From: an uncultured Acidobacteriaceae bacterium
Lineage (GTDB): Bacteria > Acidobacteriota > Terriglobia > Terriglobales > Acidobacteriaceae
Direction: 5' to 3'
Assembly: GCA_964246835.1 (NCBI GenBank)
Contig: CAXTRT010000019.1
Span: forward strand, 5,918-69,917
DNA: 64,000 nucleotides
Shown: positions 9,639 through 25,557 of the stretch, one piece after another
Position numbering within the stretch: the stretch's first letter is position 1
How the letters are laid out: the number at the start of each line of letters is the position of its first letter
The notes under the pieces: generated by a model
Database searches by the model: none
What the model was told of the DNA's origin: nothing
The model's input: the letters and a program-made list of their open reading frames with translations, nothing else
Made by a program: the position numbers and the translations under genes

Positions 9639-11555
9639 CTATAGGGAATCCGCGTTCCTGCCCCCGCCAGTCCTACCCAACTCATCCCGCTCCGCCACAT
9701 ACGCCCGCCAGATCCCCTCAGCCACACTCTCCCCCTCCACTGCCGCCCCGCTCGTCGCTGCGGCAATCGCCTCGAGCGCCGCCTTCGGGCTCCGGTCCGC
9801 GTACAGCAGCCCATTTGCCTCCTGGTATGTATCCGTCAGCTGCGTGTAGCAGAAGCCCGCCAGCGCCGGCAGGTTCCGCACCACGCTCAGCAGCGCCCGG
9901 TAGCGCTCCAGCAGCTGCTCCGCCGTCTGTGAGCGCGAGTACCCCCACGTCGCCTGCTCCTTGCTCAGCGCGATGCCGCCAAACTCCGTCAGCACAATCG
10001 GGTGCGCCTGCTGCCCGTCGCCCCTGCCCAGCAGTAGCAGCCTCCCGCCCGGCCGCTCTCGCCGCAGCAGCTTGGCCTCAATGCCATCAATCCCGTACCG
10101 CTGCCCGATCCGCTCTGGCTCGTCATCGTAGTCATGGATGCCCAGCAGGTCAGTCGCTACGCTCTCCCATCCATCGTTGCCCACCACCGGCCGGCTCGGG
10201 TCCAGCGTCTTTGTCAGGTGGTAGAGCGCCTGCACATAGTGCCGCTGCGCCTGGCTCTCCGGCAAGTTCGGCACACCCCAGCTCTCGTTGAACGGCACCC
10301 ACGCCACAATGCAGGGATGGCTGCGATCCCGGTGCAGCACCTCCTGCCACTCCCGCGTCAGCCGCTGAATCGACCGTATCGTGTAGCGATACGCGCTCGG
10401 CATCTCCTCCCACACCAGCAGACCCAGCCGGTCCGCCCAGTAGAGGTACCGCGCGCTCTCGATCTTCTGGTGCTTGCGCACGCCATTGAATCCAAGCCGC
10501 TTGGTCAGCAGAATATCCGCCGCCAGCGCATCGTCGTCTGGAGCCGTCAGTCCTGTCTTCGGCCAATACCCCTGGTCCAACACCAGCCGCAGCGGAAACG
10601 GCCGCCCGTTCAGCACAAATCGGTCGCCCTGTACCGCTACATCGCGCAGCGCCGTGTAGCTCTCCACCCGGTCCAGCAGCGTGCCCGCTTCGTCGCGCAG
10701 CTCCATAACCACGTCAATCAGCGTCGGCGAGGCCGGCGACCATAACAGCGTGTTGCGAAAATCATCGATCCCCGGATCCGATAGCGCAATCTGCCGGTGC
10801 ACCTCATCCGCAATCACTTGGTACGTGTCGTTCGCCAGCAGCTGCCCGCCCGCTTGCAGCCTCACGTTCAGCTGTAAGCTTCCGCTAGTCGCCCGGTCAT
10901 GCCGCTGCTCGATATGCGCCTCGATGCCAATCTCCCACCGCTCCAGGCTCGCCGTCCATTGCACCGACCGGATATGCGTGCACGGCACCCTCTCCAGCCA
11001 CACCGTCTGCCAGATCCCCGTCGTCCGCGGATACCAGATCGAGTGCGGCTCGAGCAGCCAGTCCTGCTTGCCGCGCGGCTTCGCCAGGTCTGCCGCGTTA
11101 TCCTCCGCACGCACCACCAGTTCCTGCACCGCGCCCTCAATCAGCGCATGCGTGATGTCCATATGAAACGGCGTATACCCGCCATAGTGTGAGCCCACGT
11201 GCGTCCCGTTCACCCATACCGTCGTGGCAAAGTCCACCGCCTCAAAGTGCAGCAGCAACCGATCGTCGGACTCGGCACCGGAGCCGCCCGTCAGCGGTGT
11301 CTGCTCCCATGTGCGTCGATACCACACCGAACTGTAGAACCCTGTATCGTCAACTCCGCTCGCCTCCGTCTCCGGGCTGAACGGAACCTCGATCGTGCAC
11401 TCCCAAGTCACCTGCGTCGGGTGCTCGCAGACCGCCTCACGCCCCTTTGAAAACTGCCACGTCCCGTTCAGCGATCGCCACTGCTTACGCCGCATCTGCG
11501 GTCGCGGATACGCGTCCATACGCGGCAGCGTGGATCCCGGTTTCGATGCGGTCAT
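9639..11555 (-). CDS. glycoside hydrolase family 2 protein (beta-galactosidase/glucuronidase-like), cytoplasmic
   Basis: SLNGTWQF N-domain and a TIM barrel with the WVPFNESWG acid/base motif. ATG 11555 is preferred to the track start (TTG 11576) because GAGGAGAGGG lies 7 nt upstream of it. No signal peptide. Confidence 0.85.
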   Translation of the reverse strand: MTASKPGSTLPRMDAYPRPQMRRKQWRSLNGTWQFSKGREAVCEHPTQVTWECTIEVPFSPETEASGVDDTGFYSSVWYRRTWEQTPLTGGSGAESDDRLLLHFEAVDFATTVWVNGTHVGSHYGGYTPFHMDITHALIEGAVQELVVRAEDNAADLAKPRGKQDWLLEPHSIWYPRTTGIWQTVWLERVPCTHIRSVQWTASLERWEIGIEAHIEQRHDRATSGSLQLNVRLQAGGQLLANDTYQVIADEVHRQIALSDPGIDDFRNTLLWSPASPTLIDVVMELRDEAGTLLDRVESYTALRDVAVQGDRFVLNGRPFPLRLVLDQGYWPKTGLTAPDDDALAADILLTKRLGFNGVRKHQKIESARYLYWADRLGLLVWEEMPSAYRYTIRSIQRLTREWQEVLHRDRSHPCIVAWVPFNESWGVPNLPESQAQRHYVQALYHLTKTLDPSRPVVGNDGWESVATDLLGIHDYDDEPERIGQRYGIDGIEAKLLRRERPGGRLLLLGRGDGQQAHPIVLTEFGGIALSKEQATWGYSRSQTAEQLLERYRALLSVVRNLPALAGFCYTQLTDTYQEANGLLYADRSPKAALEAIAAATSGAAVEGESVAEGIWRAYVAERDELGRTGGGRNADSL

Positions 11556-11611
11556 TAGCAGGCCCTCTCCTCGCAATCAAGCACTGCCCCTATCGTAGCG
11601 GCTGCATGCCT

Positions 11612-13276
11612 CTACTGCGCAGCACCCTCAAAGCTGACTCTGTAGACGGCCGCGTACTTGCCCGGCTCCGCCGTCGGACCTTCCAGGTGCAAACCCGCCG
11701 CATCCTGCAGGAACCCGACCTTCGCCTCCGATCCCAGCAGCGTAACCCCACTCACGCGTCGCATTCCGGTCACTCCGTTCCCCAGCGCATAGATCACTGC
11801 CTTTCCGTCCGCCGGCCGAGCCATCTCAATCGCATACAGCACGCCCGCCTTCGTCGTAAACCGGAAGTCTTGCGCCGTGTACGGTACCGTATCCGTGTCA
11901 TGAAACGACCCCGCCTGCACCTGAGTTGGCCCTTCGCCAAAGCTCGTCCACGGCCGCGTTCCGTAGATCGCCTCCCCATTCACCTTCAGCCAGCCGCCGA
12001 CATCCAGCAGCACCTGCTGCACCCCCTGCGGAATCGTGCCGTCCGCCCGCGGCCCAATGTTCATCAACAGATTCCCGTTTTTGCTCACTACGTCCGCCAG
12101 CTGCTGCACAATAAACGCCGGCGTCTTATACGTCTCGTTCTCGATGTACCCCCAAGACTTGTTCCCCACGGAGGTATCCGTCTGCCAGGTTATCGGCAGG
12201 ATCCCCGGAGCCTGCCCGCGTTCGATGTCCAGCACGCCCGACCCTTTCTCCATGTCCATCAGCTTGTAGTTGATAATCCCGACCGGCCCGCGCTTCGAGC
12301 TCTCGTTGTAGTAGTACGCCGCAAACTGCGCCAGGTATGGCCGCACACTCGGCTGCCCGATCCACCAGTCGAAGAAGATCAGCTCCGGCTGGTACTTCCG
12401 CACAATCTCCGCATTCCGCGCTACCCAGTCCTCCGCATAGGCCTGACTCACATACGTCCCGTCGTCTGCCAGGCTGTCCGGTGCGCCCCGCTGCTCCAGG
12501 TGCGCCGGCCCATAAAACGCCGCATACTTCGGGTCGTTCACGTCCGAGTTCTGCTTTCGCCCGCCATCTAGAAACCAGTCATGCTCGATCCGGTGCGACG
12601 ACGCCCCAAGATGCAGCCCCTCCGCCCGTACCGCCTTCGCCAGATCGCCCGCAACATCCCGATGCGGTCCCATCTTCTTCGCCGTCCAGTCCGAAAGATC
12701 GCTGTCGTACATGGCAAACCCGTCATGGTGCTCGAACACCGGCACGATATACCGCGCGCCAGAGTCCTTGAACAGCCGCGCCCACGCCGCCGGATCAAAC
12801 TTCTCCGCCTTGAACATCGGCACGAAGTCTTTGTAACCAAACTTGGTCACTGGCCCGTACGTCGCAACATGGTGCTTGTTCATCTGCGATCCTTCGAGGT
12901 ACATCTCCCGTGGGTACCACTCGCTCCCGAACGCCGGCACCGAGTACACGCCCCAGTGAATGAAGATCCCGAACTTCGCGTCCTTGTACCACTCCGGCGT
13001 TTCATAGCCCGCCAGCGACTCCCAATCCGGCCGAAACGGCCCCGCGGACGAAACCTTCCGCACATCGGCCAAAATCTCCTTGCGCTTCGCGTCATACTTT
13101 GCGCTCGCGCTCCGCCAGGCCTCATCGATCGCCACCGGCGACTGCGTGTCACTACGCCGCTCCGCGGCCGCTCCCTGGGCCCCTGCGGAGACCGTAAACC
13201 AACCTGCGAGCAGGAATGCCACGGCCGCAGCTGCCAGACTGTCTCTGCGCCGTACGTAAAGCTTATCTCGTCGCAT
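11612..13276 (-). CDS. alpha-L-fucosidase (GH29), secreted
   Basis: Signal peptide AVAFLLAGWFTVSAGAQG and GH29 core FGIFIHWGVYSVPAFGSEWY...YIVPVFEHHDGFAMYDS. ATG 13276 (GGAG 6 nt upstream) or GTG 13279. Confidence 0.9.
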   Translation of the reverse strand: MRRDKLYVRRRDSLAAAAVAFLLAGWFTVSAGAQGAAAERRSDTQSPVAIDEAWRSASAKYDAKRKEILADVRKVSSAGPFRPDWESLAGYETPEWYKDAKFGIFIHWGVYSVPAFGSEWYPREMYLEGSQMNKHHVATYGPVTKFGYKDFVPMFKAEKFDPAAWARLFKDSGARYIVPVFEHHDGFAMYDSDLSDWTAKKMGPHRDVAGDLAKAVRAEGLHLGASSHRIEHDWFLDGGRKQNSDVNDPKYAAFYGPAHLEQRGAPDSLADDGTYVSQAYAEDWVARNAEIVRKYQPELIFFDWWIGQPSVRPYLAQFAAYYYNESSKRGPVGIINYKLMDMEKGSGVLDIERGQAPGILPITWQTDTSVGNKSWGYIENETYKTPAFIVQQLADVVSKNGNLLMNIGPRADGTIPQGVQQVLLDVGGWLKVNGEAIYGTRPWTSFGEGPTQVQAGSFHDTDTVPYTAQDFRFTTKAGVLYAIEMARPADGKAVIYALGNGVTGMRRVSGVTLLGSEAKVGFLQDAAGLHLEGPTAEPGKYAAVYRVSFEGAAQ

Positions 13277-13355
13277 CACTCACTCCGTCTCCTTAGCTGT
13301 CATTCCAACCCATGAGCTTGCCGACGGCGACGTACCTGCCATTGCCTTTCTTGGT

Positions 13356-13394
13356 TGTCATTCTGAGCGCAGCGAAGAACCTCCGTATTTCGCC
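13356..13394 (-). repeat. dispersed intergenic repeat, family 1 (core TTCGCTGCGCTCAGAATGACA), inverted copy
   Basis: Plus strand reads TGTCATTCTGAGCGCAGCGAAGAACCTCCGTATTTCGCC. This is the reverse complement of the motif at 56611-56648 and of the other copies. It lies in the divergent GH29/GH29 promoter region. Confidence 0.85.
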
Positions 13395-13639
13395 TTGAGT
13401 CGCGGACACCAAGTGTAGACGAACGGAGACGTTTTTCTGTCGTCGAAGCCCACGGCAATCGTCTCTGCGCGCTTGACTACACCGGTCCGGACCTGCCCTG
13501 TACAGTCAATCCCCGGAAGCAATCGCGCGCGCAAGCAGACGGATCGGCTCCCACAGGCGTGCTACCGTGGCTGAGCTTGCACCAGGAGCAACCAGCGTCT
13601 CGGCCGCACTCTCACCTATCGCCGCCTATAGGAGCCCCT

Positions 13640-15034
13640 ATGTTCACCCGCATCGCTACTCTCCTCCCGCTCGCCCTCGCGGCTACAGTCTCCTTAGCCC
13701 AGGCCGCGACGCACTACCAGCCCACCCTCGAGTCTCTCGACACCCATCCTCTCCCGGCCTGGTACGCCGACGCCAAGCTCGGCATCTTCGTCCATTGGGG
13801 TCTCTATTCCGTCCCCGGCTGGGCCCCGCTCCAGCACCCCGGCCATGACTTCACCAACGAGGATTACATCGTCAACAATCCCTACGCCGAGTGGTACCTG
13901 AACGTCATGCGCATCCCCGGCTCGCCCACCCAGGCCTACCAGCAGCAGCACTTCAACGGCGCCAACTACTACGACTTCACCGCCACCTTCGACGAGCAGT
14001 CCGCCAAGTGGTCGCCCGACGCCTGGGCCAAGACCTTCCACGACGCCGGCGCCCGCTACGTCGTTCTCACCACCAAGCATCACGACGGCTTCGCCCTCTG
14101 GCCCACGCAGGTCGTCAACCCTAACCAGAAACATCTCAGCGCCAAACGCGACATCGTCGGCGATCTCACTGCCAGCGTCCAGCGAGCCGGCCTGAAGATG
14201 GGCCTCTACTACTCCGGTGGCTACGACTGGACCTTCAATCGCGGCCCCATTGAGGTCTCCGCGGACTACGAGGCGGTCAAACCGCAGACCCACGCCTACG
14301 GCCTCTACGCCGACGCCCAGATCAAGGAGCTCATCGCCCGCTATCACCCCGCCATTCTTTGGAACGACATCGACTGGCCGAAGTCCGGCAACGCCCTGCA
14401 GGTCATGGCCGATTACTACAACGCCGTCCCCGATGGCGTCATCGACGATCGCTTCGGCATCAAGCACGCCGACTTCACCTCGCCCGAGTACGCCAAACTC
14501 GACCACATCAGCGAGAAGAAGTGGGAGGAGTGCCGCGGCCTCGGCAGATCCTTCGGCTACAACCGCGCCGAAGGCGAAGCCGAAACCATTGCCCCAGCCG
14601 AGCTCATCACGCTGCTCGTCGATATCGTCAGCAAAAACGGCAACCTCCTGCTTGATGTCGGCCCTGAAGCCGACGGCACCATTCCCGCCGTTCAGGTGAA
14701 TCGACTCAACAAGCTCGGTGCATGGCTCAAACAGAACGGCGACGCTATCTATGGCACGGCTCCCTGGACCCGCGCCGATGGCAAGACGGCCGACGGCATC
14801 GATCTTCGCTTCACCCGCAAGGGCTCAAAGCTCTATGCCATCCTGCTCGCCAAACCTGCCGGCCGCAGCGTCACCCTCGTCGACGTAGCCGCCCGCCCCG
14901 GCGCACCAGTTCGTCTCCTCGGCAGTAACGCCAAACTCCATGGCTCCGCCGTCGGCAAAGATCTTAAGGTCGATCTTCCAACATCGCTCCCCGGCAGCTA
15001 CGCCTTCGTCCTCGAACTTGAATCCACCTCCTGA
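13640..15034 (+). CDS. alpha-L-fucosidase (GH29), secreted
   Basis: ATG 13640 with GGAG 5 nt upstream gives MFTRIATLLPLALAATVSLAQA (signal peptide). GH29 core GIFVHWGLYSVPGWAP...YVVLTTKHHDGFALWPT. The upstream part of the track ORF (13559) lacks an RBS. Confidence 0.9.
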   Translation: MFTRIATLLPLALAATVSLAQAATHYQPTLESLDTHPLPAWYADAKLGIFVHWGLYSVPGWAPLQHPGHDFTNEDYIVNNPYAEWYLNVMRIPGSPTQAYQQQHFNGANYYDFTATFDEQSAKWSPDAWAKTFHDAGARYVVLTTKHHDGFALWPTQVVNPNQKHLSAKRDIVGDLTASVQRAGLKMGLYYSGGYDWTFNRGPIEVSADYEAVKPQTHAYGLYADAQIKELIARYHPAILWNDIDWPKSGNALQVMADYYNAVPDGVIDDRFGIKHADFTSPEYAKLDHISEKKWEECRGLGRSFGYNRAEGEAETIAPAELITLLVDIVSKNGNLLLDVGPEADGTIPAVQVNRLNKLGAWLKQNGDAIYGTAPWTRADGKTADGIDLRFTRKGSKLYAILLAKPAGRSVTLVDVAARPGAPVRLLGSNAKLHGSAVGKDLKVDLPTSLPGSYAFVLELESTS

Positions 15035-15214
15035 TCGTCCGACCACCTAACCTAATCCTCAAGTCGAAGCCTCGCCGACTTCCACTCGATGCCGACGAGA
15101 TCGCCTCTCTATGCATCTCATCACTATCACGTTCTTGTTTTCGTCTTTCCTCCGCGTACCTTGCGACCTCCGCGGTTCTGTCCTTCTTTTATCTTTCCAC
15201 CGCCAGGAGGCCCC

Positions 15215-16990
15215 GTGCCCGAAATCGCCGCAGAGCCGAGTCAAACCGCTGACCGCCGCACTCCTCCCACCGACCCCATTACCGCTGCTCAGCATTTTGC
15301 TGACGAGCTATCTTCCCGCCCTCCCACCATCGCCGCGCCGGTCGCCGAGCTCCAGCAACTTGGCCGTCTGGGCCTCCTCACAGCCCCGCTTCCCCGCGCA
15401 AACGGCGGCTTGGGCCTCGGCACTGAACCCGGCAACCACCTCACCCTCCTCCGCGTCCTCGCCCTCATCGGGGGCGCCAATCTCGCCCTTGGCCGCCTCT
15501 ACGAGGGCCACGTCAACGCCCTCATCCTCATCGCCGCCTTCGGCTCCACCGCGCAACTAGATCGCGCCGCAGAGGACGCACACGCCGGCCTCGTCTTTGG
15601 CGTCTGGAACACCGGCAGCACCGAGCTCCTCCGGCTCAGCCCGCAAGGCGCCCGCTTCCGCTTTACCGGAAACAAGACCTTCGCCACCGGAGCCGCCTTC
15701 GTCCAGCGGCCCATCATCACCGCAGAGCTCACCAACGCCGGCTGGCAGATGACCATGCCCCGCATGGAAACGCCCTCCGTCGCGAACGCCATTGTCCTCG
15801 ATCGCGACTCCTGGCATCCCCTCGGCATGGAGACCTCCGAAAGCTTTGGCATCGATCTCACCGGCGCTCTCATTGACCATGACGACCTCCTTGGCGCTCC
15901 CGGCGACTTCTATCGCGACCCGCTCTTTCGCGGTGGCGCCATCCGGTTTGCCGCCGTCCAGGCCGGAGCTATCCTCCGCCTCCACCATCTGTTCGTCGAA
16001 TGGTTACAATCCCGCAATCGAACCGACGATCCCTACCAGATCGCACGCCTCGGCGAGATAACCCTCGGCGCGCAAGAGGCCACACTCTGGATCGAACGTG
16101 CCGCCAACTTCGCCGAGTCCGGCCTCTCGCTTACAGCCGACAAGCTCGCAACCGAGCGCATGGTCGCCTGCGCCAACATGACCCGTCTCGCCATCGAGCG
16201 CATCGCCACCCCGCTCATGCAGCGCATCATCGCCGGCATCGGCGCTCACGGCCTGCTGCAGCCGCACCCCTTCGAGCGCATCCTTCGCAACCTCACCATG
16301 TACCTTCGCCAGCCCGCCCCCGACCAGACCCTCGCCGACGTCGGCCGCGCCTCCATCCGCAACAGCCATCTCCGCTCTACCAGCACCGAGAGCGACCTCT
16401 GGAGCCACACCGGCTCTAGTGGCTCCCTCCCACCCTCCTACTTCGACGACGTCTACGCCGCCTCACCCGACCCGTGGAACTTCGAGACCAGCGACTACGA
16501 GGCCCGCAAGTATCAGGACACCCTCGCCCATCTCCCGCGGCCCCGCTATCGCAACGTCCTTGAGATTGGCTGCTCCATCGGCGTCCTCACCCGCCAGCTC
16601 GCCGGCCGCTGCGATGCCCTTCTCAGCATTGATGTCTCCGAGCGTGCCCTCGAGATCGCACGCACCCGCTGCGCCGATCTTTCCCACGTCCACTTTTCCC
16701 AAATGCATATCCCCAAAGAGATGCCCGACGGCTGCTTCGATCTCATCGTCCTCTCCGAGGTCGGCTACTACTGGCAGCGCGAAGATCTCGAGCGCACCGC
16801 CAGCCTCCTCGCGGCACGCCAGCCAGCTGGCGGCCAGCTCCTCCTCGTCCACTACACACCCGTCGTTCCCGACTACCCACTCACCGGCGATCAGGTGCAC
16901 GCGATCCTGCTCGCGCGCGCCGAGTGGCGTTTCCTTGACCGCACTCGCACCGATCACTACCGCCTCGATCTTCTCGAGCGCTGTTACTAA
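15215..16990 (+). CDS. fusion protein: acyl-CoA dehydrogenase-like domain + NodS-like SAM-dependent methyltransferase
   Basis: GTG 15215 with AGGAGG 4 nt upstream. The N-terminal ~400 aa have ACAD-like alpha/beta/alpha organisation (LGRLYEGHVNA, VWNTGS, GNKTFATGA, RFAAVQAG). The C-terminal ~170 aa, DPWNFETSDYEARKY...VLEIGCSIGVLTRQLAGRC..LLSIDVS..A...FDLIVLSEVGYYW...GGQLLLVH, align by eye with NodS. Confidence 0.75.
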   Translation: MPEIAAEPSQTADRRTPPTDPITAAQHFADELSSRPPTIAAPVAELQQLGRLGLLTAPLPRANGGLGLGTEPGNHLTLLRVLALIGGANLALGRLYEGHVNALILIAAFGSTAQLDRAAEDAHAGLVFGVWNTGSTELLRLSPQGARFRFTGNKTFATGAAFVQRPIITAELTNAGWQMTMPRMETPSVANAIVLDRDSWHPLGMETSESFGIDLTGALIDHDDLLGAPGDFYRDPLFRGGAIRFAAVQAGAILRLHHLFVEWLQSRNRTDDPYQIARLGEITLGAQEATLWIERAANFAESGLSLTADKLATERMVACANMTRLAIERIATPLMQRIIAGIGAHGLLQPHPFERILRNLTMYLRQPAPDQTLADVGRASIRNSHLRSTSTESDLWSHTGSSGSLPPSYFDDVYAASPDPWNFETSDYEARKYQDTLAHLPRPRYRNVLEIGCSIGVLTRQLAGRCDALLSIDVSERALEIARTRCADLSHVHFSQMHIPKEMPDGCFDLIVLSEVGYYWQREDLERTASLLAARQPAGGQLLLVHYTPVVPDYPLTGDQVHAILLARAEWRFLDRTRTDHYRLDLLERCY

Positions 16991-16999
16991 ACAAGCCGG

Positions 17000-18205
17000 C
17001 TACTTGGTTGTCACCCCACAGGAATCTGCTGTTACCTCAACGTGTGGCGTCGCCGGCGCATCCGCGGTGTCCAAGCGCCTCGCCCGTTCCTTCGCAATCA
17101 TCACCGCAATTGACTCATTCACCTCTCTCACGCGTCCCTCGCGCTCTCCTCGAAACGACTCTCCGATCAGCCGGTCGCAGTCCACAGCAGCCAGAAATTC
17201 CCCCAGCCCTCCGGATTGGATTCGTTCCCCAAGCATCCTCGTCCGCCACTCCGTGGAGTACTTGAAGACATATGTAACATCGCCGGTAGCATAAAATGTT
17301 CGCAGCTGTCGCAGCGTTCGAAATCGGTGCCGCAACCACTCCGCCGAAAGCACCCGGTGCTCCATACCTTCCTCGTGCATCCGTTGCCAGCAGCGCAGCT
17401 GCCCTGCCAGCCCCGTCGCAATCCGTCCATCCAGCCGCGCCGACGTGTACACCACCACCGCCGGCTCATGCCGCAGCCGCGCATCGACTCGCCGCAATCG
17501 ATCCACAAACGCCACGTCCTCCAGCTCCGCCAGCGCCGGCATGCCACCGGCGCGCGCATACATCTCCGGTGTACACCCAAACGACGCCCCGAAGTGCTCC
17601 AGGTGCCTCGGCCACGCATCCCCAATCTGCGGATCGAAAAGATCCTCCATCTCTGCCACAAGATACTGATACTCCCGATCGCTCCGGTACGCCTTCCGCA
17701 CCGCATACGGAAGTGACTCGTAATCATTACAATTCAACCGGATCTCTCCGCCCACCGCATCCGCGCCTCTGTCCATCGCAGAAAGATTCTGCGCGATCCA
17801 GTCCGGAGTCGCATAGCTATCAGAGTCCGTCGAAAGAATCGCGCATGTCTCCAGACATGCTGCCAAGCGCGCCCACGCTGTATCCATCAGTAGCCGCCGC
17901 ACTGTGCCGATGTGCGCCGTCTCTTGCGGCAGCTCCCGCTCGCAGCAGAAGAGCCGCACCTCTGGATGCATCCGCTGCCACGCCTGCGCCACCGCCGCCG
18001 ACCCATCCGTACAGTTGTTCAGCAATAATAAAATCTCAAAGCTCGACCTCGCCAGCGGCCTTCCCGCGAGATCCACCTGCGCAGCCAACGCATCGAGCGT
18101 CGCCGCCAGCGAGGCTTCTTCGTTCCGTACAGGCAACGCCACCACCGCTCTGCATCGTGGATCCGCTGCGCCCCCTACCAGAACCTCCTCCGGCACAAAT
18201 CTCAT
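17000..18205 (-). CDS. glycosyltransferase family 2
   Basis: VVALPVRNEEASLAATLDAL, ILLLLNNCTDGS, DxD-like STDSDS. ATG 18205 forms an ATGA overlap with the PIG-L stop (18202-18204), so it is preferred to the track start 18244. Confidence 0.8.
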   Translation of the reverse strand: MRFVPEEVLVGGAADPRCRAVVALPVRNEEASLAATLDALAAQVDLAGRPLARSSFEILLLLNNCTDGSAAVAQAWQRMHPEVRLFCCERELPQETAHIGTVRRLLMDTAWARLAACLETCAILSTDSDSYATPDWIAQNLSAMDRGADAVGGEIRLNCNDYESLPYAVRKAYRSDREYQYLVAEMEDLFDPQIGDAWPRHLEHFGASFGCTPEMYARAGGMPALAELEDVAFVDRLRRVDARLRHEPAVVVYTSARLDGRIATGLAGQLRCWQRMHEEGMEHRVLSAEWLRHRFRTLRQLRTFYATGDVTYVFKYSTEWRTRMLGERIQSGGLGEFLAAVDCDRLIGESFRGEREGRVREVNESIAVMIAKERARRLDTADAPATPHVEVTADSCGVTTK

Positions 18206-19050
18206 CGCGGCCCACCGCCTGACTTCAAGTCCGACGCACACCACGCCGCGTTTCCCCAGAGCCGCTCCCGCCCCCCATACCGCACGCAGAACTCCGCTAT
18301 CTGATCGGCTACGTCATCCACGATCTGTGAGTCATAGCACAGCGCCAACCGCCGTTTCCGTGCCACTGCCGTCTCATCGGTGTCTTCACTGGTAACAAAT
18401 ATGGGCTGCAGCTGCTCGCCTACCGCGGCCGCCATTGCTTCTATCGTCTCCACAGTCCCGATCCGCGCCGCATACGGCAGATCCTCGTAGAACGCCATCG
18501 GCATCTCCGCCGGCTGCTCAGAGGTCAGCATCGCCTCACGTACGGTCCTGTGGTCCACATGCGATCCCATCGCCAACGGAAGGACCAGCGCATCTCCACC
18601 CAGTGCCGCGACCGCCTTCGGCACCTTCATCATCGCTTTGTCCTCAGGATTCACCCGCAGCGCGCAAATTTGCTCCAGCCCCACATGCAAACGCAGCGGC
18701 GCATCCTTCATGTTCAGATCGGTCATCCTTAGCGTGCGGGTGCCGTACATTTTCTGCCAGCTCTGGTCCTCCCGCAGCCGCAGCGCTGTCACACGCAGCA
18801 ATCGATCGTTTGAGTGAATAAACTCGAACTCCGCATGAGGGGCGTAGTCGCTCCGCGTAAAGCAGTTCACAACGTCCACGGTATGGCCCGCATCCAGCCA
18901 CGTACCGATACTTAGCCCCAGCGAAAAAGCCGCGTCATCCCGATGCGGTGACAGCACAACAATCTTCAAGCTGTATATCTCCAGAGGGCCCGCGATTCTT
19001 CTATCTGCATCGCGTAGCCCAGCTACATTGGAGTGCTGCATCGCGCGCAA
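18202..19050 (-). CDS. PIG-L/LmbE family N-acetylglucosaminyl deacetylase
   Basis: KIVVLSPHRDDAAFSLG and GSHVDHRTV, the metal-binding motifs of the family. Start uncertain: TTG 19050, ATG 19041, or TTG 18969 (MKIVVLSPH, GGAG 9 nt upstream). Confidence 0.8.
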   Translation of the reverse strand: MRAMQHSNVAGLRDADRRIAGPLEIYSLKIVVLSPHRDDAAFSLGLSIGTWLDAGHTVDVVNCFTRSDYAPHAEFEFIHSNDRLLRVTALRLREDQSWQKMYGTRTLRMTDLNMKDAPLRLHVGLEQICALRVNPEDKAMMKVPKAVAALGGDALVLPLAMGSHVDHRTVREAMLTSEQPAEMPMAFYEDLPYAARIGTVETIEAMAAAVGEQLQPIFVTSEDTDETAVARKRRLALCYDSQIVDDVADQIAEFCVRYGGRERLWGNAAWCASDLKSGGGPR

Positions 19051-19092
19051 GGTGGTATGTAGCTATAAACCAAACCTGCACGCTCTCTATAA

Positions 19093-21912
19093 CTAAAGCC
19101 CTTTACGTTCCGTCTTGATGCCGTGCATCTTCTCCAGGCACGTCGCGGTCAGCGCGGTCCACCCTGTCTGATGGCTCGCTCCGACACCTCGCCCCGTGTC
19201 GCCGTCAAAGTACTCGCTAAAGAGCACCAGATCGCGCCAGTGCGGATCATCGGCATAGCGCTGCTCGTCTCCATGTGCCGGCCGGCATCCTTTCCCGTCG
19301 CGTAAAAACAAGCCGACCAGTCTCCGCGCAATCTCCTCGGCCGCCTCCTGTAGCGTCATCATCGTTCCGCTACCCGTCGGACACTCCACCTTCAGATCTT
19401 TGCCATAAACCGCGTTGTAGCGCTCAAGCGCATTGAGCAGCAGGATGTTCATCGGAAACCATACCGGCCCGCGCCAGTTGCTGTTGCCGCCAAACATGCC
19501 GCTGTCACCCTCCGCCGGGACATACTTCACCGTCATTGATTTGCCCGCCAGATCGACCTGGTAGGGCTGCTCGTGGTGAACCCGGGAAAGCGCGCGTACT
19601 CCATGACCGGAGAGAAACTCGGTCTCATTGAGCACCCGCCGCAGAATTCGCAGAAGCCTCTCCTTCGGCACCAGCGCCACAAAGTGCGATCCCGCATACT
19701 CCGGGTCCGTCGTCTCCACCTTCGTGACATACCGCGCCAGATCCGGCTTATTTGCAAGAAACCATTTCAGCCGCTTCATAAAACCCGGCAGCTTCTCGAT
19801 CTCATCTTTATGCAGAAGACCCACGGCAAAGATCGGCACAACTCCCACAATGGAGTGCACGTTCAAAGACTTGGACGAGCCGCCCTCGAAGATCAGCTGG
19901 TCAAAGTAAAAGCCGTCCTCTTCATCCCACAACCCGCTGCCGCCAAGGTTGTTAATGGCATCGATAATCGCAACGAAGTGCTCGAAGAACTTGCTGGCAA
20001 CATCCTCATACGCCGGCCTTGTCTGCGCCAGTTCGATCGCGATCGTCAGCATCGCCGAGCAGTACAGCCCCATCCATGCCGTCCCATCTGCCTGGTTCAG
20101 CTGCGTGCCGTTGGGCAGCCGCATGGATCGATCAAAGACGCCGATGTTGTCGAGGCCGAGAAATCCACCGCCGAAGAGGTTATGGCCCTTCTCGTCGTTG
20201 CGATTCACCCACCACGTAAAGTTCAGCAGCAGCTTCTGGAAGGCGCGCTCCAGAAAATCGACATCCTTTACGCCGCCGTCCCGCTTCGCGGACATCTCGT
20301 ACACGTGCAGCACTGCCCATGCATGCACTGGCGGATTCACATCGCCGAACGCAAACTCATATGCCGGCATCTGCCCGTTCGGATGCATGTACCACTCACG
20401 CAGCAGCAGCAGCATCTGGTCTTTCGCATACCGTGGATCCACCTCGGCCATCGGAATCATGTGGAATGCCGTGTCCCACGCGGCAAACCACGGATACTCC
20501 CACTTGTCCGGCATGGACAGCACATCGCGGCAGAAGAGATGTCGCCACTCTTTATTCTCTGTCGTCTTACGCGACTCCGGTGGCGGCGGCTGTGCCGGAT
20601 CGCCCTCTAGCCAGCGCTCAGAGATGTAGTAGTAAAACTGCTTTGTCCAGAGCAGCCCCGCATACGCCTGTCGAGACACATTCCGCTCGTCTTCGTTGAG
20701 AACCTTTGGAATCCGCTCTGCGTAGAACGCATCTGCCTCTCGCTTTCGCAGCTCAAAGCATTGATCAAACATAGAAGCGTCGATCGCCTGCGGGCTCTCC
20801 TCGTCGACTCGCACCAGGCGAAGCCGGAGAACCACGGTCTGCCCCGGCTCCATGTCCAGGCGATAGACATAGGCGCTCTTCGTACCCACCTGCTCCGGAT
20901 TGATCGCTTCCTTGTCTCCATGCAGCAGGTAGCGATCAAATCCATCCTTGCTGTAACGTGTGTCGCCCCGGTAGTTCGGATCGAGACGATGAATGTTCGT
21001 ATCGTTTTCGGTGAAGAGAACTTCATCAGGCCTCAAGCCATCCTCCTCAACCGTCGCAAAACGAAACTGCCCAAGCGTCTTATGGCTCGCCAGTACGCCC
21101 GTCTCATCCAGCCACATCCCCGGCCGCGTCTGCTCGCCGTCCTCCAGGTTCCGCCACGACCAGTTATTCCGCAGCGTCAGCGTCGGCGCCACGGTCAGGC
21201 TCGCCGCCTCCGGCCCGCGATTTGAAAGTGTCAACCGAATGAGCGTGTCTTCAGGGGAGCTCTTCGCATACTCCACCTGCACATCGAAGTATCGCTCTTC
21301 GTCGAAGATATGCGTATCCAGCAGCTCATACTCCGGCTCGTCATAGCCTCGCTCACGGTTCACACGAACCAGATCGTCGTACGGAAATGCCCGCTGCGGA
21401 TACTTGTAAAGGGCCTTTGCATAGCTGTGCGTCGGCGTCGCATCCAGGTAGTAGTACTGCTCCTTTACATCCTCGCCATGGTTGCCTTCGGTGTTCCCCA
21501 ACCCGAACAGCCGCTCCTTTAGAATCGCATCGTTACCGTTCCACAACGACGTCGAAAAGCACAGTCGGCACTCGCGATCGGTCCATCCCAGCAGTCCATC
21601 TTCGCCCCACCGATACGCCCTGTATCGCGCCATGTCATGTGTGAAGTTCCACGCATTGCCGTCCGCGGAGTAGTCCTCGCGCACCGTGCCCCACTGCCGC
21701 TCCGGCAGATACGTCCCCCAGCGCTGCCAGTTCTCCTCCCGAGCCTCCGACTTCGCCAGCCGCTCGTCCTCTACAGTTAGAATGCGCGCGGCCTTACTCT
21801 GCCCGTCGCCCTCTGCACCCCCACCCGGCGATCTTCTCTTAGCACCACCCCCGGCGCCTGATTTCGTGCCACTGCTCTTGGAGCTTTCTTTTGGCGTACC
21901 CTGACCGTTCAT
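19093..21912 (-). CDS. GH63-like (alpha/alpha)6-barrel glycoside hydrolase (MGH1-like glucosidase family), cytoplasmic
   Basis: 939 aa with NWQRWGTYLPERQWGTVREDYS, RLFGLGNTEGNHGEDVKE, WEYPWFAAWDTAFH, NPPVHAWA. G/K/S-rich N-terminal ~45 aa; no signal peptide. Confidence 0.7.
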   Translation of the reverse strand: MNGQGTPKESSKSSGTKSGAGGGAKRRSPGGGAEGDGQSKAARILTVEDERLAKSEAREENWQRWGTYLPERQWGTVREDYSADGNAWNFTHDMARYRAYRWGEDGLLGWTDRECRLCFSTSLWNGNDAILKERLFGLGNTEGNHGEDVKEQYYYLDATPTHSYAKALYKYPQRAFPYDDLVRVNRERGYDEPEYELLDTHIFDEERYFDVQVEYAKSSPEDTLIRLTLSNRGPEAASLTVAPTLTLRNNWSWRNLEDGEQTRPGMWLDETGVLASHKTLGQFRFATVEEDGLRPDEVLFTENDTNIHRLDPNYRGDTRYSKDGFDRYLLHGDKEAINPEQVGTKSAYVYRLDMEPGQTVVLRLRLVRVDEESPQAIDASMFDQCFELRKREADAFYAERIPKVLNEDERNVSRQAYAGLLWTKQFYYYISERWLEGDPAQPPPPESRKTTENKEWRHLFCRDVLSMPDKWEYPWFAAWDTAFHMIPMAEVDPRYAKDQMLLLLREWYMHPNGQMPAYEFAFGDVNPPVHAWAVLHVYEMSAKRDGGVKDVDFLERAFQKLLLNFTWWVNRNDEKGHNLFGGGFLGLDNIGVFDRSMRLPNGTQLNQADGTAWMGLYCSAMLTIAIELAQTRPAYEDVASKFFEHFVAIIDAINNLGGSGLWDEEDGFYFDQLIFEGGSSKSLNVHSIVGVVPIFAVGLLHKDEIEKLPGFMKRLKWFLANKPDLARYVTKVETTDPEYAGSHFVALVPKERLLRILRRVLNETEFLSGHGVRALSRVHHEQPYQVDLAGKSMTVKYVPAEGDSGMFGGNSNWRGPVWFPMNILLLNALERYNAVYGKDLKVECPTGSGTMMTLQEAAEEIARRLVGLFLRDGKGCRPAHGDEQRYADDPHWRDLVLFSEYFDGDTGRGVGASHQTGWTALTATCLEKMHGIKTERKGL

Positions 21913-22071
21913 GCAACGTTAGATGCTCGGCAGCATAAATCTTTCATCAAAGTTGGCGCGTTCTCAGCTCGCGGAAATCCCCTTGCGAGACGTCAGCAAG
22001 AACGCGTGTTTCCTCGACTAAACCGGGCAAGAGAGACCTCTACCAGCGCAAAAACACACCTGTTGTGCAGC

Positions 22072-25000
22072 CTATCGGCTTAGGCGTATCGCAAATTGCA
22101 CCACGCGCTGCTCTGTCGTGGTGCTTGTGATGCTGCCAAACGCCGCCGCGCCAAACGTTCCATTCGGCTGCGCAAACGCCGGCGTATTCGTCACATTGAA
22201 GACCTCTCCGCGAAACTCTGCGTCCGTCTTCTCCGTAAAACGCGTGTGCTTCACAAGCGCCAGATCCAGATCCCGGTACGCCGGTCCTCGCACCGGATTG
22301 CGCGACGCATTCCCCAGCGTGAACTGCGGAGCCAGCGTAAACGCGCCTGTATTGAAGTACTTGACCGGCGTTCGATCTCCCGGCGCAAGGCCTGTATTCG
22401 CCACGACATTCGGCCGCTGCAGCGAAAGCCCGGCAAACGAGTTCGTATTCGTGGCCTGCGTCACCGTCACCGGCATCCCCGACTGCACCAGCCCTATCGC
22501 ATTGACGGCCCACCCGCCGATGAGCAGATTGGTCACTCCATGCGAAGCAAGCCGATGCCCGCGACCGACCGGAAGGTCATACGTTGCCGCGATTGACGTC
22601 ACATTTGGCATGTCGCCATTCGACGAATCCCGCTCAAGATAAGGTCGAAACGTATCGGCCGCAATCAAGCTGCTCGAGTTCGGCGACGACAACACAGTGG
22701 AAGAAAACACCGAGGAAGCATCATCAATCAGCTTGGAATGCGTGTACGCAAAGAGGAAATAGAGACCGTTTGAAACTCTCTGCTCCACCTTGGCTTCGAT
22801 CGCGTTGTAGTTCGTCGTTCCGCTATTGTTTCTATAAGTTGCAACATTCTGAAAGCGTGGATACGGCTTCAACAGTTGAGCCGCCGCCACCGTCTTGCCG
22901 CCGATCGTACTCGATCCGGGTATCTGGCCGAAGAACGGATTTGCGACAGCACCGGTCAACGAGCCGGGATTGGTCAATCCCTGAGCCAGCTGCGCCGCCG
23001 TCAGCTGATTCAGGTTTGAATCGGGAATACCGACATGCACGATGTGCGAGCCAACATACGCCACATCGACCGATAGATTGCTTGTAACCTGCCGCTGCAC
23101 TGCCAGATTCCATTGCTGCACATAGCCGGATCCGGCAGTACGATTTGCCGTGTAGACACTCTGCCCCAGACCTGCGTTGGGCGTCAGCGCAATCGGAGCG
23201 ACAGACGGTCCGCTAGAGAGCGTGAACGCCCCGTTTATACTGTCCTGCGTTCTCTGCTGCACGTTCTGAATGAATGGGAACTGCGGCAGCGTGAAGGGCG
23301 TTGTGATCCCGGACTGATCGATAAAAACAATGCCAAAGCCGGACCGCACCACGGTCTTTGGGGTAACCAGGTAAGTAAAGCCCACACGCGGAGCGACATT
23401 GCCATAATGCAGCTCGCGCGCGCTCTTTGAATTTCCGTTCTGGCCGGCGTAGTCCAACTGCTGCGTTGCAAGATTGAATACCGCGCCTTGATTATTTTTT
23501 TCGGTCGAGGGCGAGTGCAGAGTCCAGCGCGCGCCAAGGTTCAGCGTCAGGCGGTCCGAGGCTCGCCAGTCATCCTGCAGAAAATATTCTTGGATGTGAT
23601 CCCTCGGCCTGATCTTACTTTGCTGCAGATCGATCGAGAACGTATCGACCTGCCCCAGCAGAAAACTCGCAATAGCATTTCCGTTTCCACGCTTATCCGT
23701 GGCCGGCACGACCAGACCCTGCTGGTTTGTTCCAGTCGTAGTAAACGCGAAAGAGCCGGTCGGGTTTGGTGGAGAGACCGCATTTAGCTGATAAAAGCGT
23801 ATGTCCCCACCCGCCTTAATCGTGTGCCGACCACGGGTATACACGACGCTATCCTCCAGCTGCCAGACTGCGGTTTGATACTGCGAGAACGTGCTTGCGG
23901 ATGGTCCAAGCTGCTGAAACCCTGCAAAGGTAAAGAGCGGCAGGGCATTGTTGAACTCTGCATTCGTAGGAATACCCGGAATGTTGAGCGCCGCGGAGGC
24001 GGTAGTACCCAGAGTTGGTCCAGTTATGGTATTTCCCCGACGCGTATAGCCGACACGCACATCGTTGATCAGGTGATCCGTAAAGGTATGCGTCTCTCCG
24101 AAGACAGCCTGTTGGCCTAGAACATGCGACAGGCCCACGACGCCCCCTGTACCGATCACCGATCCGGTCACGGCGCCACTTCCATCCGGCAGCGGAGTCA
24201 CAGGCTGCTCTATATCGCTGAAGTAGGAGTAGCGTCCGAATGCCCGATCCTTTCCCCGCAGCGCACCATCGACGCGAAAATCAAATTGATTCTGATGATC
24301 CGCATCGTTCGCAGTCCGCGTGTAGTTGTTTGCAGCCGCGGTCAGATTTGTCGGTATGGGAAAGCGCGCCAATAAAGCCTTGGCGACTGGATCGAGCGGA
24401 GTTGTAATGACGTCATTCGCAAACTCCTGACGAACAAACTTGCCCCCGGCCGATGTCGTTGTCGCAGGATTGTAGACATGCGACACGCCGGTAAAGATTC
24501 CTTGCCGCTCCGCCAGAGTCGGAAGTGTGGAGATAACTGTACGGCCGATCAGCGCCTTGATTCCCTGGTAATCGCCGAAGAAGAACAGCCGGTCGCGCAA
24601 CACAGGGCCGCCAAGCGTGCCGCCATAAAGATTACGACGATACTCAGGTTTTGCCCCCGTGCTCGCAAAATAGTTACGGGCATTCAGAGCTTCGTTCCGG
24701 AAGAACTCAAACAGGCTGCCATGGAAATTATTAGACCCGGAGCGTGTGGCAACATTGACGACGCCGCCGTTAAAGCGGCCAAACTCCGCCGGCACGTTAT
24801 CCGCTTCAATCGTGAACTCCTGAATGTCGTCAATGATGGGAAAGAACGCGACCTGGCCGGGCTCCGGCTGCAACGCGGAGATGCCGTCGTATAGGTACTC
24901 GTTCGTGCGAGGTCTCCCCCCGTTGATGCGCGGCAGAACCGTTCCCGGCGGCAATGATACGCCCGGTGCAAGCGACGCAAGATTGATAAAGTTGCGGCTG

Positions 25001-25440
25001 TTGAGCGGAATCGCCACGACGGTTGCTCCCGGAATGTGCGTTTCTATATCGCTCTCTGCCGCCTGCAGAAGCGGCGCATCTGCGTCAACTGAGACCGACT
25101 GCTGCTCTGCACCGATCGTTAGAGTCAGATCGACGCTGGCGGTCTGCCCGACGGTCGCAGTCACTCCAGTGCGGCTCAGCCGTTCGAAACCGGAAGCGGT
25201 CACTTCCAGACGATAGCTTCCTGGATTTAGCTGGCTGAACCCGTAGTCGCCAGATGCAGAGCTGGTCGTCTGCTGCCGAAAGCTGGTCGAGTCCTCCGTG
25301 AGCACGACCGTGGCGCGAGCAACGCCGGCGCCTGAGCCATCAGCTACCCGTCCCTGCACGCCGGCCGCGATCTGCGCCATGGCCGCAGACGTGGCGAAGA
25401 CAGCGAAGAGCGAGGCGGACAGACTGCGATAGAACGTCAT
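22072..25440 (-). CDS. TonB-dependent receptor with carboxypeptidase-regulatory-like N-domain
   Basis: ATG 25440 gives MTFYRSLSASLFAVFATSAAMAQ (signal peptide). It is followed by GRVADGSGAGVARATVVL...GDYGFSQLNPGSYRLEVTASGFE, a plug, and a long G/N/T/Y-rich barrel. Confidence 0.9.
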   Translation of the reverse strand: MTFYRSLSASLFAVFATSAAMAQIAAGVQGRVADGSGAGVARATVVLTEDSTSFRQQTTSSASGDYGFSQLNPGSYRLEVTASGFERLSRTGVTATVGQTASVDLTLTIGAEQQSVSVDADAPLLQAAESDIETHIPGATVVAIPLNSRNFINLASLAPGVSLPPGTVLPRINGGRPRTNEYLYDGISALQPEPGQVAFFPIIDDIQEFTIEADNVPAEFGRFNGGVVNVATRSGSNNFHGSLFEFFRNEALNARNYFASTGAKPEYRRNLYGGTLGGPVLRDRLFFFGDYQGIKALIGRTVISTLPTLAERQGIFTGVSHVYNPATTTSAGGKFVRQEFANDVITTPLDPVAKALLARFPIPTNLTAAANNYTRTANDADHQNQFDFRVDGALRGKDRAFGRYSYFSDIEQPVTPLPDGSGAVTGSVIGTGGVVGLSHVLGQQAVFGETHTFTDHLINDVRVGYTRRGNTITGPTLGTTASAALNIPGIPTNAEFNNALPLFTFAGFQQLGPSASTFSQYQTAVWQLEDSVVYTRGRHTIKAGGDIRFYQLNAVSPPNPTGSFAFTTTGTNQQGLVVPATDKRGNGNAIASFLLGQVDTFSIDLQQSKIRPRDHIQEYFLQDDWRASDRLTLNLGARWTLHSPSTEKNNQGAVFNLATQQLDYAGQNGNSKSARELHYGNVAPRVGFTYLVTPKTVVRSGFGIVFIDQSGITTPFTLPQFPFIQNVQQRTQDSINGAFTLSSGPSVAPIALTPNAGLGQSVYTANRTAGSGYVQQWNLAVQRQVTSNLSVDVAYVGSHIVHVGIPDSNLNQLTAAQLAQGLTNPGSLTGAVANPFFGQIPGSSTIGGKTVAAAQLLKPYPRFQNVATYRNNSGTTNYNAIEAKVEQRVSNGLYFLFAYTHSKLIDDASSVFSSTVLSSPNSSSLIAADTFRPYLERDSSNGDMPNVTSIAATYDLPVGRGHRLASHGVTNLLIGGWAVNAIGLVQSGMPVTVTQATNTNSFAGLSLQRPNVVANTGLAPGDRTPVKYFNTGAFTLAPQFTLGNASRNPVRGPAYRDLDLALVKHTRFTEKTDAEFRGEVFNVTNTPAFAQPNGTFGAAAFGSITSTTTEQRVVQFAIRLSR

Positions 25441-25557
25441 GCAGGTGCTCCTGGCAGCACAGATCTGCGCCACATTAGGCCAAGGCCAAGGAATTCGCGA
25501 AAGCTGCATGGGATTTGGGAAGAGGCGTGCTTAAATCAACATCAGTCGCGTTGCTCG

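Follow-up and report, generated by a model that had tools for sequence, protein, structure and literature searches.

A widely conserved deacetylase, methyltransferase, glycosyltransferase and ACAD-fold gene cassette, in apparently rearranged form, in an uncultured Acidobacteriaceae bacterium

The stretch of DNA considered here, referred to as the window, comprises 64,000 nucleotides of an uncultured Acidobacteriaceae bacterium (assembly GCA_964246835.1, contig CAXTRT010000019.1, positions 5,918 to 69,917 of the forward strand). It carries three genes that encode four enzyme domains (Table 1). A fusion gene joins an acyl-CoA dehydrogenase-like (ACAD-fold) domain to a NodS-like S-adenosylmethionine (SAM)-dependent methyltransferase (MT) domain. 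Converging on it are a GT2-family glycosyltransferase (GT) gene and a gene of the PIG-L deacetylase family. These four domains recur together as a cassette in many bacteria and are regarded with high confidence as one conserved functional unit or pathway, of which the window would hold a rearranged derivative.

Table 1. Coordinates of the cassette genes, their junctions and neighboring glycan-utilization genes in the window (aa, amino acids; ORF, open reading frame; GH, glycoside hydrolase).
Feature	Position (nt)	Strand	Basis or remark
Fusion gene, ACAD-fold domain plus NodS-like MT domain	15215 (GTG)-16990	+	ORF list; database gene call P0001, 591 aa
AGGAGG, Shine-Dalgarno-like	15205-15210	+	4 nt before GTG of fusion gene; read from sequence
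ACAD-fold domain, residues ~20-386	15272-16372	+	Pfam, PDB, NCBIfam, Foldseek
NodS-like SAM-dependent MT domain, residues ~405-591	16427-16987	+	Pfam, PDB matches
9-nt gap between convergent stops	16991-16999	.	TAA 16988-16990, CTA 17000-17002
GT2 gene, 401 aa	17000-18205	-	ORF list, Pfam
ATGA overlap, PIG-L stop TGA / GT2 start ATG	18202-18205	-	sequence; same 4-nt overlap in loci L002 and L088
PIG-L gene	18202-18969, longest ORF to 19050	-	ORF list, Pfam; start from homolog lengths and sequence
GH2	9639-11576		glycan-utilization neighbor
GH29 fucosidases	11612-13279, 13559-15034		glycan-utilization neighbors
GH63/MGH1-like protein, 939 aa	19093-21912		glycan-utilization neighbor
CarboxypepD_reg-type TonB-dependent outer-membrane proteins	22072-25509, 45785-49168		
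GH127	41921-43927		glycan-utilization neighbor
LacI regulator	49354-50424		

The longest ORF of the fusion gene spans 15089-16990 (+). The GTG codon at 15215 is favored as its start by the ribosome-binding-like site 4 nt upstream and by the 591-aa database call. Homologs of the PIG-L protein are about 250 aa long and begin with MKIVV; because of this, TTG 18969, located after a GGAG, is taken as the likely start of the PIG-L gene. The true start is probably this codon or ATG 19041 rather than TTG 19050. This is the one correction to the layout given in a first-pass annotation made from the sequence, whose three genes, ATGA overlap and 9-nt convergent gap lacking a hairpin were otherwise confirmed. 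No terminator-like site was found in the gap, and the predicted RNA structure of the convergent junction was no better than that of shuffled sequences (z = -0.22 and +0.43 for the two strands). No Rfam families or riboswitches were detected within 14500-22500. A sigma-70-like promoter was not found, and terminator-like sites were no commoner than expected by chance.

Several further ORFs of 270-374 aa are located at 16419-17294 (+), 17296-18222 (+), 11447-12571 (+) and 13694-14506 (-). They run antisense to the real genes or out of frame with them, and their translations are of low complexity and rich in Pro, Arg, Ser and Ala. These are typical shadow ORFs of high-GC DNA and not genes.

Pfam models were matched for all four domains that the first-pass annotation had named: NodS (E = 3e-17), Acyl-CoA_dh_2 (1.6e-6), Acyl-CoA_dh_N (4e-4), Glycos_transf_2 (2e-9) and PIG-L (1e-9). 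In the fusion protein, the Acyl-CoA_dh_N and Acyl-CoA_dh_2 matches occupy the N-terminal two thirds, and NodS and Methyltransf_25 are matched at the C-terminus. The GT exceeds the threshold of its family (PF00535, 37.8 bits against 23.3), as does the PIG-L protein (PF02585, 39.2 bits against a cutoff of 28.2, E = 1.2e-9). The four cassette proteins all fall outside the NCBIfam equivalogs. The GT motifs T126-D127-x-D129 (DxD-type) and E229-D230 are invariant in the family alignment. The PIG-L protein retains SPHRDD and HVDH, and all 19 homologs aligned keep its residues H36, D39, H164, D166 and H167 unchanged. Decay, which had been considered as a condition against the cassette, is thus not seen in the catalytic motifs of the GT and PIG-L, and the three genes look intact. 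Transmembrane-like segments and signal peptides are absent from the three window proteins.

Linkage of the domains was examined in one genome per GTDB species, the scan being anchored on the GT alone by an alignment of four sequences. This gave 80 loci, which were then subjected to domain profile searches; 60 of them had at least 5 kb on each side (full flanks). The ACAD-like and MT domains accompany the GT in 51 of the 60 full-flank loci (85%), and PIG-L is present as well in 46. Such co-occurrence in independently sampled loci is beyond chance and bears out the earlier proposal that the four domains belong together. The GT-anchored loci come from Cyanobacteriota, Bacteroidota (Hymenobacter, Chitinophagaceae, Mucilaginibacter, Dyadobacter), Rhodothermales, Deinococcota, Chloroflexota, Verrucomicrobiota, three orders of Acidobacteriota, Burkholderiales and Caulobacteraceae. 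Plasmid matches add Rubrobacter and more Proteobacteria, which brings the range to at least nine phyla (Cyanobacteriota, Bacteroidota, Rhodothermota, Deinococcota, Chloroflexota, Verrucomicrobiota, Acidobacteriota, Actinomycetota and Pseudomonadota). Clustering at 50% identity divides the GT family into 379 groups (E <= 1e-30). The GT-anchored loci show no further gene family in steady association with the cassette, so it looks self-contained.

When the fusion protein was searched against plasmids with tblastn, its halves matched separate genes in many records. The plasmid cassettes are annotated as 'acyl-CoA dehydrogenase family protein', 'PIG-L family deacetylase', 'SAM-dependent methyltransferase' and 'glycosyltransferase'. 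Their hosts include Deinococcus, Bradyrhizobium, Novosphingobium, Sphingobium, Paracoccus, Sulfitobacter, Komagataeibacter, Roseomonas, Nostoc and Methylobacterium, among others. Examples of the cassette are C3K08_RS14500-14515 of Deinococcus sp. NW-56, QIH95_RS49775-49790 on plasmid pS11L-1 of Bradyrhizobium japonicum, and ACICU_02432-02435 of Acinetobacter baumannii. In phmmer comparisons with the example loci, the window proteins gave E-values of 3e-78 to 7e-20 for the ACAD-like domain, 9e-64 to 9e-41 for MT and 5e-72 to 8e-30 for GT. The window GT and that of the Deinococcus cassette are 39% identical (E = 1e-46). By these similarities, the ACAD-like, MT and GT proteins of the window are assigned as orthologs of those in the example cassettes, and all four members of the conserved set are represented in the window.

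The cassette on the A. baumannii chromosome is homologous by profile comparison (ACAD 3.5e-57, PIG-L of the usual cassette type 2e-48, MT 7e-57, GT 1.3e-39), and its genes are all overlapping and co-directional. ACICU_02432-02435 have been marked as one operon encoding a glycosyltransferase, a SAM-dependent methyltransferase, an LmbE protein as well as one related to acyl-CoA dehydrogenases (PMC5660220). They are expressed at ~540-2670 reads per kilobase per million mapped reads in the wild type and fall jointly by 31-62-fold in lpxC-disrupted colistin-dependent mutants (PMC5660220). The cassette genes flank the blue-light sensor gene blsA (PMC6240043). Neither report gives a function to them (PMC5660220, PMC6240043). 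Full-text literature searches found no functional study of the cassette, no characterized pathway for its close homologs and no curated family, in agreement with the first-pass annotation. Its statement that such gene sets are widely annotated and unstudied also held in substance for the set as a whole; of the PIG-L::MT fusions it mentioned, none was seen in the 80 GT-anchored loci, where the two genes are adjacent and overlapping. The literature on DnpA of Pseudomonas aeruginosa was set aside because it concerns an unrelated PIG-L protein.

In the usual order, ACAD, PIG-L and MT converge tail-to-tail on GT. In Deinococcus and Bradyrhizobium, ACAD, PIG-L and MT are linked by start/stop overlaps of 4 nt, and overlaps of the translational-coupling type seen at the window are common between neighboring cassette genes. 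Both MT and GT are present in 76 loci (among L001-L087 and the window), and 65 of these have the two genes in convergent orientation. In 31 of the 65 the coding regions run into one another at their 3' ends, frequently by 4 nt; the gap has a median of 7 nt. The 9-nt gap in the window is the local form of this family-wide tail-to-tail junction. The genes are co-directional in Verrucomicrobia, Vicinamibacteria, Rubrobacter and A. baumannii, so the convergent layout is common but not obligatory. Overlapping 3' untranslated regions or antisense coupling are among the possibilities for the meaning of this junction.

The window shares the tail-to-tail MT/GT junction with the four-gene cassette of Deinococcus, Bradyrhizobium and A. 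baumannii but differs in that no PIG-L gene lies between ACAD and MT, which are fused, and in that a PIG-L gene of another subfamily lies upstream of GT. The fused ACAD::MT form with PIG-L upstream of GT is common to the Acidobacteriaceae (the window and loci L001, L002, L069, L070, L076, L077, L081, L088 and L089). Among the matches listed, the fusion protein has relatives in at least 120 clusters at 90% identity, all near full length (532-648 aa), and the named ones are from Granulicella and Acidobacteriaceae. At the Bryobacterales loci, ACAD and MT adjoin each other unfused with no PIG-L between, and two of these (L052, L055) carry a PIG-L gene of the window kind upstream of GT; this layout looks intermediate between the usual and the fused forms. 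By gene order and subfamily, the window is best described as a derived acidobacterial rearrangement, in which the original PIG-L gene would have been lost, ACAD and MT then became adjacent and fused, and a PIG-L paralog was substituted. The first-pass annotation had missed this derivation.

The window and acidobacterial PIG-L subfamily is called type 1 below, and the usual cassette PIG-L type 2. A tblastn search of plasmids with the window PIG-L matched no cassette PIG-L, which reflects its membership in another subfamily than the usual one and not the absence of cassettes. The window PIG-L is 27% identical to that of Deinococcus, and profile-profile alignment of the two types gave 21% identity. 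The only solved relatives of type 1 are the teicoplanin/A40926 deacetylases Dbv21/Orf2* (1.2e-13 by profile, 3e-8 by single sequence). The nearest relatives of type 2 are archaeal diacetylchitobiose deacetylases, TT1542 and BshB. The window PIG-L had no NCBIfam hit, and a profile search of solved structures did not return BshB or MshB, so it does not fall within these equivalogs.

A third deacetylase is found on a plasmid of Rubrobacter indicoceani (L007, 5012-9663). The genes there are all co-directional and encode a polysaccharide deacetylase of carbohydrate esterase family 4 (CE4, the NodB family), an ACAD-like protein, an MT, a Pyr_redox_2 FAD oxidoreductase and a GT-A glycosyltransferase, the CE4 enzyme filling the PIG-L slot. 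Because three unrelated or distantly related deacetylases (type 2, type 1 and CE4) occupy this slot, deacetylation itself appears to be an obligatory step. At one further locus (L090, 1027-3027, on one long-read contig) a single 666-aa gene call comprises type-1 PIG-L and GT2 and lies beside an ACAD::MT fusion. It was not used as strong evidence, since a one-base error at the ATGA overlap would mimic a fusion. If real, it would put the whole pathway in two polypeptides.

The AlphaFold2 model of the fusion protein has a mean predicted local distance difference test (pLDDT) score of 88.4 and a predicted template modeling score of 0.80, with pLDDT <50 solely at residues 1-13 and at segments 390-394 and 396-402 of the flexible linker. 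The ACAD half has the three-domain ACAD fold (target-normalized Foldseek TM-scores 0.79-0.83 to DszC, isovaleryl-CoA dehydrogenase (IVD), SCAD and MCAD) and scores above the Acyl-CoA_dh_2 cutoff (28.9 bits against 22.7). Against PDB sequences, it matched DszC (2e-12), MsuC (4e-7), DnmZ (3e-5) and IVD (7e-5), as well as TdsC. Its NCBIfam matches are SfnB (6e-19) and DszC (2e-12), with scores of 68 against a cutoff of 431 and 47 against 850. SfnB and DszC are likewise the best NCBIfam matches of the ACAD-like proteins of Nostoc and Deinococcus, all far below the cutoffs.

Residue-level analysis was needed because the fold search could not separate oxygenase from dehydrogenase. The catalytic glutamates of true acyl-CoA dehydrogenases lie in the motifs 'YEGT' of MCAD (E376) and 'LDLER' of IVD (E254). 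These positions were mapped through the DszC alignment and the MCAD/IVD motifs, and residues were tabulated for 74 orthologs. The position of MCAD Glu376 is taken by Pro367 in the window, within the family motif R(D/N)LTxYLRQPAPD; it is Pro in 65 of the 74 orthologs and P/S/A/G in 72. The position of IVD Glu254 is Ile243, with I/V/L/A in 68 of 74. Neither position has a tabulated Asp or Glu. The catalytic base, whose retention the first-pass annotation had left to be checked, is therefore gone from both canonical positions, and the nearest relatives of the domain are DszC, SfnB, MsuC and DnmZ. Loss of the catalytic Glu is shared with the group D flavin monooxygenases (DszC/TdsC, SfnB, MsuC, DnmZ/KijD3). 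Nitrososynthases oxidize the amine of nucleoside diphosphate-aminosugars. The ACAD half and DszC also have a C-terminal F(D/E)R..RN...ADVG pattern in common. Residue 158 is S/T in 72 of 72 sequences; a Ser/Thr near flavin N5 is expected of group D, but true acyl-CoA dehydrogenases have it too. The ACAD half differs from DszC in its low identity (~20%) and in the replacement of DszC H92, Y96 and H391 by R94, G98 and Q366. On these data the domain does not qualify as a conventional acyl-CoA dehydrogenase, and an oxygenase of the flavin monooxygenase kind is the likelier prediction. In Rubrobacter, a Pyr_redox_2 reductase gene is inserted into the cassette; in one verrucomicrobial locus, a Rieske-Pyr_redox_2 reductase comes directly after it, and three further loci have a reductase within ~5 kb of the cassette. 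These are candidate flavin or electron donors and would suit a two-component monooxygenase.

The ACAD-fold domain might instead desaturate or deliver an acyl group (acyl-CoA or acyl carrier protein-bound) for the amine freed by PIG-L, which would give an N-acylated glucosaminide or glycolipid as in teicoplanin/A40926 or the Nod factor. Isovaleryl- and butyryl-CoA dehydrogenases are indeed among the top structural matches and also appear as weak sequence hits, and the window PIG-L is closest to Dbv21/Orf2*. The products of Dbv21/Orf2* are subsequently N-acylated in teicoplanin biosynthesis. An acyl product, which the first-pass annotation had entertained, is nevertheless unlikely: the catalytic base is replaced at both positions in the orthologs tabulated, the sequence affinity is stronger to flavin monooxygenases, genes for an acyltransferase, an acyl carrier protein or an acyl-activating enzyme are not conserved beside the cassette, and the proteins are all soluble, with no membrane segment in any of them.

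The MT domain belongs to the class I SAM-dependent enzymes: strands and helices alternate in its AlphaFold2 model, and it passes Methyltransf_25 (8e-11; 42.9 bits against a cutoff of 27) besides Methyltransf_11, _12 and _31, NodS being matched at 3e-17. PDB entry 4ISC ('Methyltransferase', 164 aa) covers the whole domain (1.3e-32), and the NodS structure 3ofj is matched at 2.4e-12. This MT family is accordingly represented by a solved structure; 4ISC is a stand-alone protein, whereas the window MT is a fused domain. The alignment with NodS, made by eye in the first-pass annotation, holds for the SAM-binding half: true nodS genes align to residues 416-519 only, at 33-39% identity. Identity with NodS does not hold, as the domain scores 66.2 bits against the 300 required by equivalog NF041650 and covers positions 9-118 of its 190. 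On these alignments, the MT is placed in a sister family of NodS and not in NodS itself. N-methylation of the freed amine would be a reasonable analogy with NodS, nothing more.

The AlphaFold2 model of the GT (mean pLDDT 91.3) shows a GT-A core followed by a C-terminal all-helical domain. Several known systems share parts of the same logic. In mycothiol (MshA/MshB) and bacillithiol (BshA/BshB) biosynthesis, a GT makes an N-acetylglucosamine (GlcNAc) conjugate and a PIG-L enzyme frees the amine. Type-2 PIG-Ls match BshB1 at 1.4e-17 (NCBIfam) and 1.7e-15 (PDB), with a score of 64 against an equivalog cutoff of 182. These thiol pathways use a GT4 enzyme and a Cys ligase (MshC/BshC) and have no methyltransferase or flavoprotein; the cassette, in contrast, has a GT2 and no GT4 or Cys ligase conserved nearby. 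Orf2*/Dbv21 also act on the GlcNAc glycoside of a small molecule, but they are ~270 aa long and belong to glycopeptide clusters with a GT1 enzyme and an acyltransferase, and nonribosomal peptide synthetase or glycopeptide genes are absent at the window locus. The Nod-factor system (NodC, NodB, NodS, NodA) shares the set of GT2, deacetylase and NodS-like MT, the Rubrobacter variant even having a NodB-family CE4 enzyme. Unlike NodC, the window GT has no membrane domain and is not NodC-like; there is no NodA and no nodABC, and the ACAD-fold protein has no Nod counterpart.

The explanation preferred here is a soluble, cytoplasmic four-enzyme pathway leading to a hexosamine conjugate that is N-deacetylated and methylated and probably carries added oxygen as well; as a whole, it stands at about even confidence. 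Confidence is high that the domains serve one pathway and low for its specific chemistry: observation extends to the genes and their motifs, to the linkage that is conserved and to a deacetylase replaced repeatedly, and we infer the donor sugar, the acceptor, the methylation site, the oxygenase chemistry and the product. The GT-A/GT2 enzyme would transfer an N-acetylhexosamine (HexNAc), most simply GlcNAc from UDP-GlcNAc, to a commonly available acceptor. The PIG-L zinc hydrolase would strip the N-acetyl group and expose the amine. The NodS-like MT would methylate the product, N-methylation being assumed by analogy with NodS. The ACAD-fold domain, DszC/SfnB/MsuC/nitrososynthase-like and deprived of the catalytic base, would oxidize the product, with the amine nitrogen as a plausible target. 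In Acidobacteriaceae, the MT and flavoprotein activities would reside in one polypeptide, and GT and PIG-L would be coupled via the ATGA overlap. The data allow more than one order of steps: tailoring may equally precede transfer and act on the nucleotide sugar, as is the case for the known sugar N-methyltransferases and nitrososynthases.

Several observations weigh against this explanation. The fold search with the GT yields only generic GT-A matches (PcManGT, RmlT, AvpGT, K4CP and ArnC, with TM-scores of ~0.4 and ~0.44), which do not point to an acceptor type. The MT resembles NodS in its SAM-binding half only, so that the methyl group may go to N or to O. Foldseek scores DszC/TdsC and true acyl-CoA dehydrogenases alike, so that oxygenase and dehydrogenase are not told apart by fold, and there is no flavin reductase in the window. 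The convergent and often overlapping MT and GT genes could in principle bring antisense interference instead of co-expression. ACAD, MT and GT occur with no deacetylase detectable within 10 kb in 9 of the 80 loci, and GT stands alone in 11 of the 80, of which 5 have full flanks. In D. radiodurans (L091 and L093, on a 412-kb replicon), the genes are scattered: a 779-aa ACAD-family protein is encoded beside PIG-L, MT lies ~2.8 kb off past an inserted DEAD/DEAH helicase gene, and GT is ~175 kb from these three, next to pxpB. The five isolated GT genes among the 60 full-flank loci and the distant GT of D. radiodurans could also be taken for chance adjacency or decay of genes that share no function. 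Such an account is scarcely credible in the face of co-occurrence in 85% of loci over nine phyla, the fusion kept in at least 120 clusters among the matches listed, intact and invariant catalytic motifs, and the co-regulated operon of A. baumannii; the GT-anchored linkage counts effectively refute it.

A different setting for the same GT family is seen in 13 loci (Acidobacteria, Burkholderiales, Chloroflexota), where it lies by a module of UDP-galactopyranose mutase (GLF), a GT1_4 protein often fused to GLF, and a conserved protein of ~370 aa that has no Pfam match. The loci with this module include L048 (6461-9989), L052, L055, L036, L071, L074, L059, L001 (12324-14618) and L002 (11972-14323). 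The cassette may accordingly be thought to tailor a cell-surface polysaccharide or glycoconjugate, the GT2 adding a HexNAc that is partly deacetylated and methylated, together with galactofuranose enzymes. This would agree with the presence of the GLF module in L036 and L074, where ACAD, MT and PIG-L are all absent, and with L002, in which the trio adjoins Wzz, Poly_export and Bac_transf genes. Surface tailoring is improbable all the same, as the module is absent from the whole window and from the loci of Cyanobacteria, Bacteroidota and Deinococcus, the cassette has no conserved exporter, flippase or polymerase as a companion, signal peptides and transmembrane segments are lacking, and the cassette is self-contained in most phyla.

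Genes for egtB (DinB_2 + FGE-sulfatase) and egtD (Methyltransf_33) were observed in L048 (12862-15072), L052 (11702-13917), L055 (10927-13137) and L036 (11165-13480). They lie directly upstream of the (ACAD-)MT genes and co-directional with them in L048, L052 and L055, the ACAD gene being missing in L052 and L055; in L036 they flank the GT alone. A link to ergothioneine was rejected as too narrow to explain the function, as egtB-egtD adjoin the cassette or GT in four Bryobacterales-type loci only. Catalase, Ku/LigD and HWE kinase genes lie near the cassette in L004 and L005, and a place for it in the alphaproteobacterial general stress response was considered. This idea was dropped: no GGAAC-N15-18-CGTT promoter lies upstream of the cassette in these two loci, and the paper on the EcfG regulon of S. 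melonis does not list the cassette.

The surroundings of the cassette in the window are rich in glycan-utilization genes (9639-25509 and 41921-50424, Table 1). The order of a TonB-type outer-membrane protein, GH63/MGH1-like protein, PIG-L, GT2, convergent fusion gene and GH29 fucosidase is kept in the window and in its relatives L088 and L089. The genes might on this account be part of a polysaccharide-utilization cluster and process imported GlcNAc oligosaccharides in catabolism or salvage, for which the diacetylchitobiose deacetylases that stand nearest to type-2 PIG-Ls could be cited as well. Such a role is very unlikely, since the synteny is limited to close relatives (73-78% GT identity), while Granulicella loci (54-57%) and other phyla have other neighbors; moreover, GT2 and SAM methyltransferase activities are biosynthetic, and on plasmids the cassette occurs in unrelated contexts.

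The window also has a very strong regional GC skew that is independent of gene strand. The stretches 6-22 kb and 43-50 kb have values of about -0.20 to -0.28, those from 22 to 42 kb stay near 0 with a lower GC content (0.57-0.59), and 54-64 kb reaches +0.2 to +0.38. The sign of the skew flips in a lower-GC stretch at 50.5-54 kb with small regulator and short-chain dehydrogenase/reductase genes. No DnaA-box enrichment and no dnaA were seen in the window.

What is new is an apparently unstudied and widely conserved combination of known enzyme families, with the window as its apparently rearranged acidobacterial derivative. Beyond the preferred pathway, a more specific proposal is tentative and rather doubtful: the cassette may make an undescribed, widespread hexosamine glycoside with a methylated and N-oxygenated amine (a hydroxylamine, nitrone or N-oxide head). 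This would serve as a protective metabolite or cofactor in hosts such as Acidobacteria, desiccation-tolerant cyanobacteria, Deinococcus and Acinetobacter baumannii, and the MT/GT overlap would act in antisense control.

Mycothiol, bacillithiol, GPI-anchor, aminoglycoside and glycopeptide biosynthesis all center on a GT paired with PIG-L, a pair that is joined here to a NodS-like MT and a DszC-like flavoprotein. The replacements of the deacetylase and the fusion found in Acidobacteriaceae show the cassette's indispensable steps and those that work jointly. With only three or four genes, the cassette is an easy target for heterologous expression. The identity of its product would annotate several hundred protein families (50%-identity clusters) and could uncover aminosugar metabolites of a new class.

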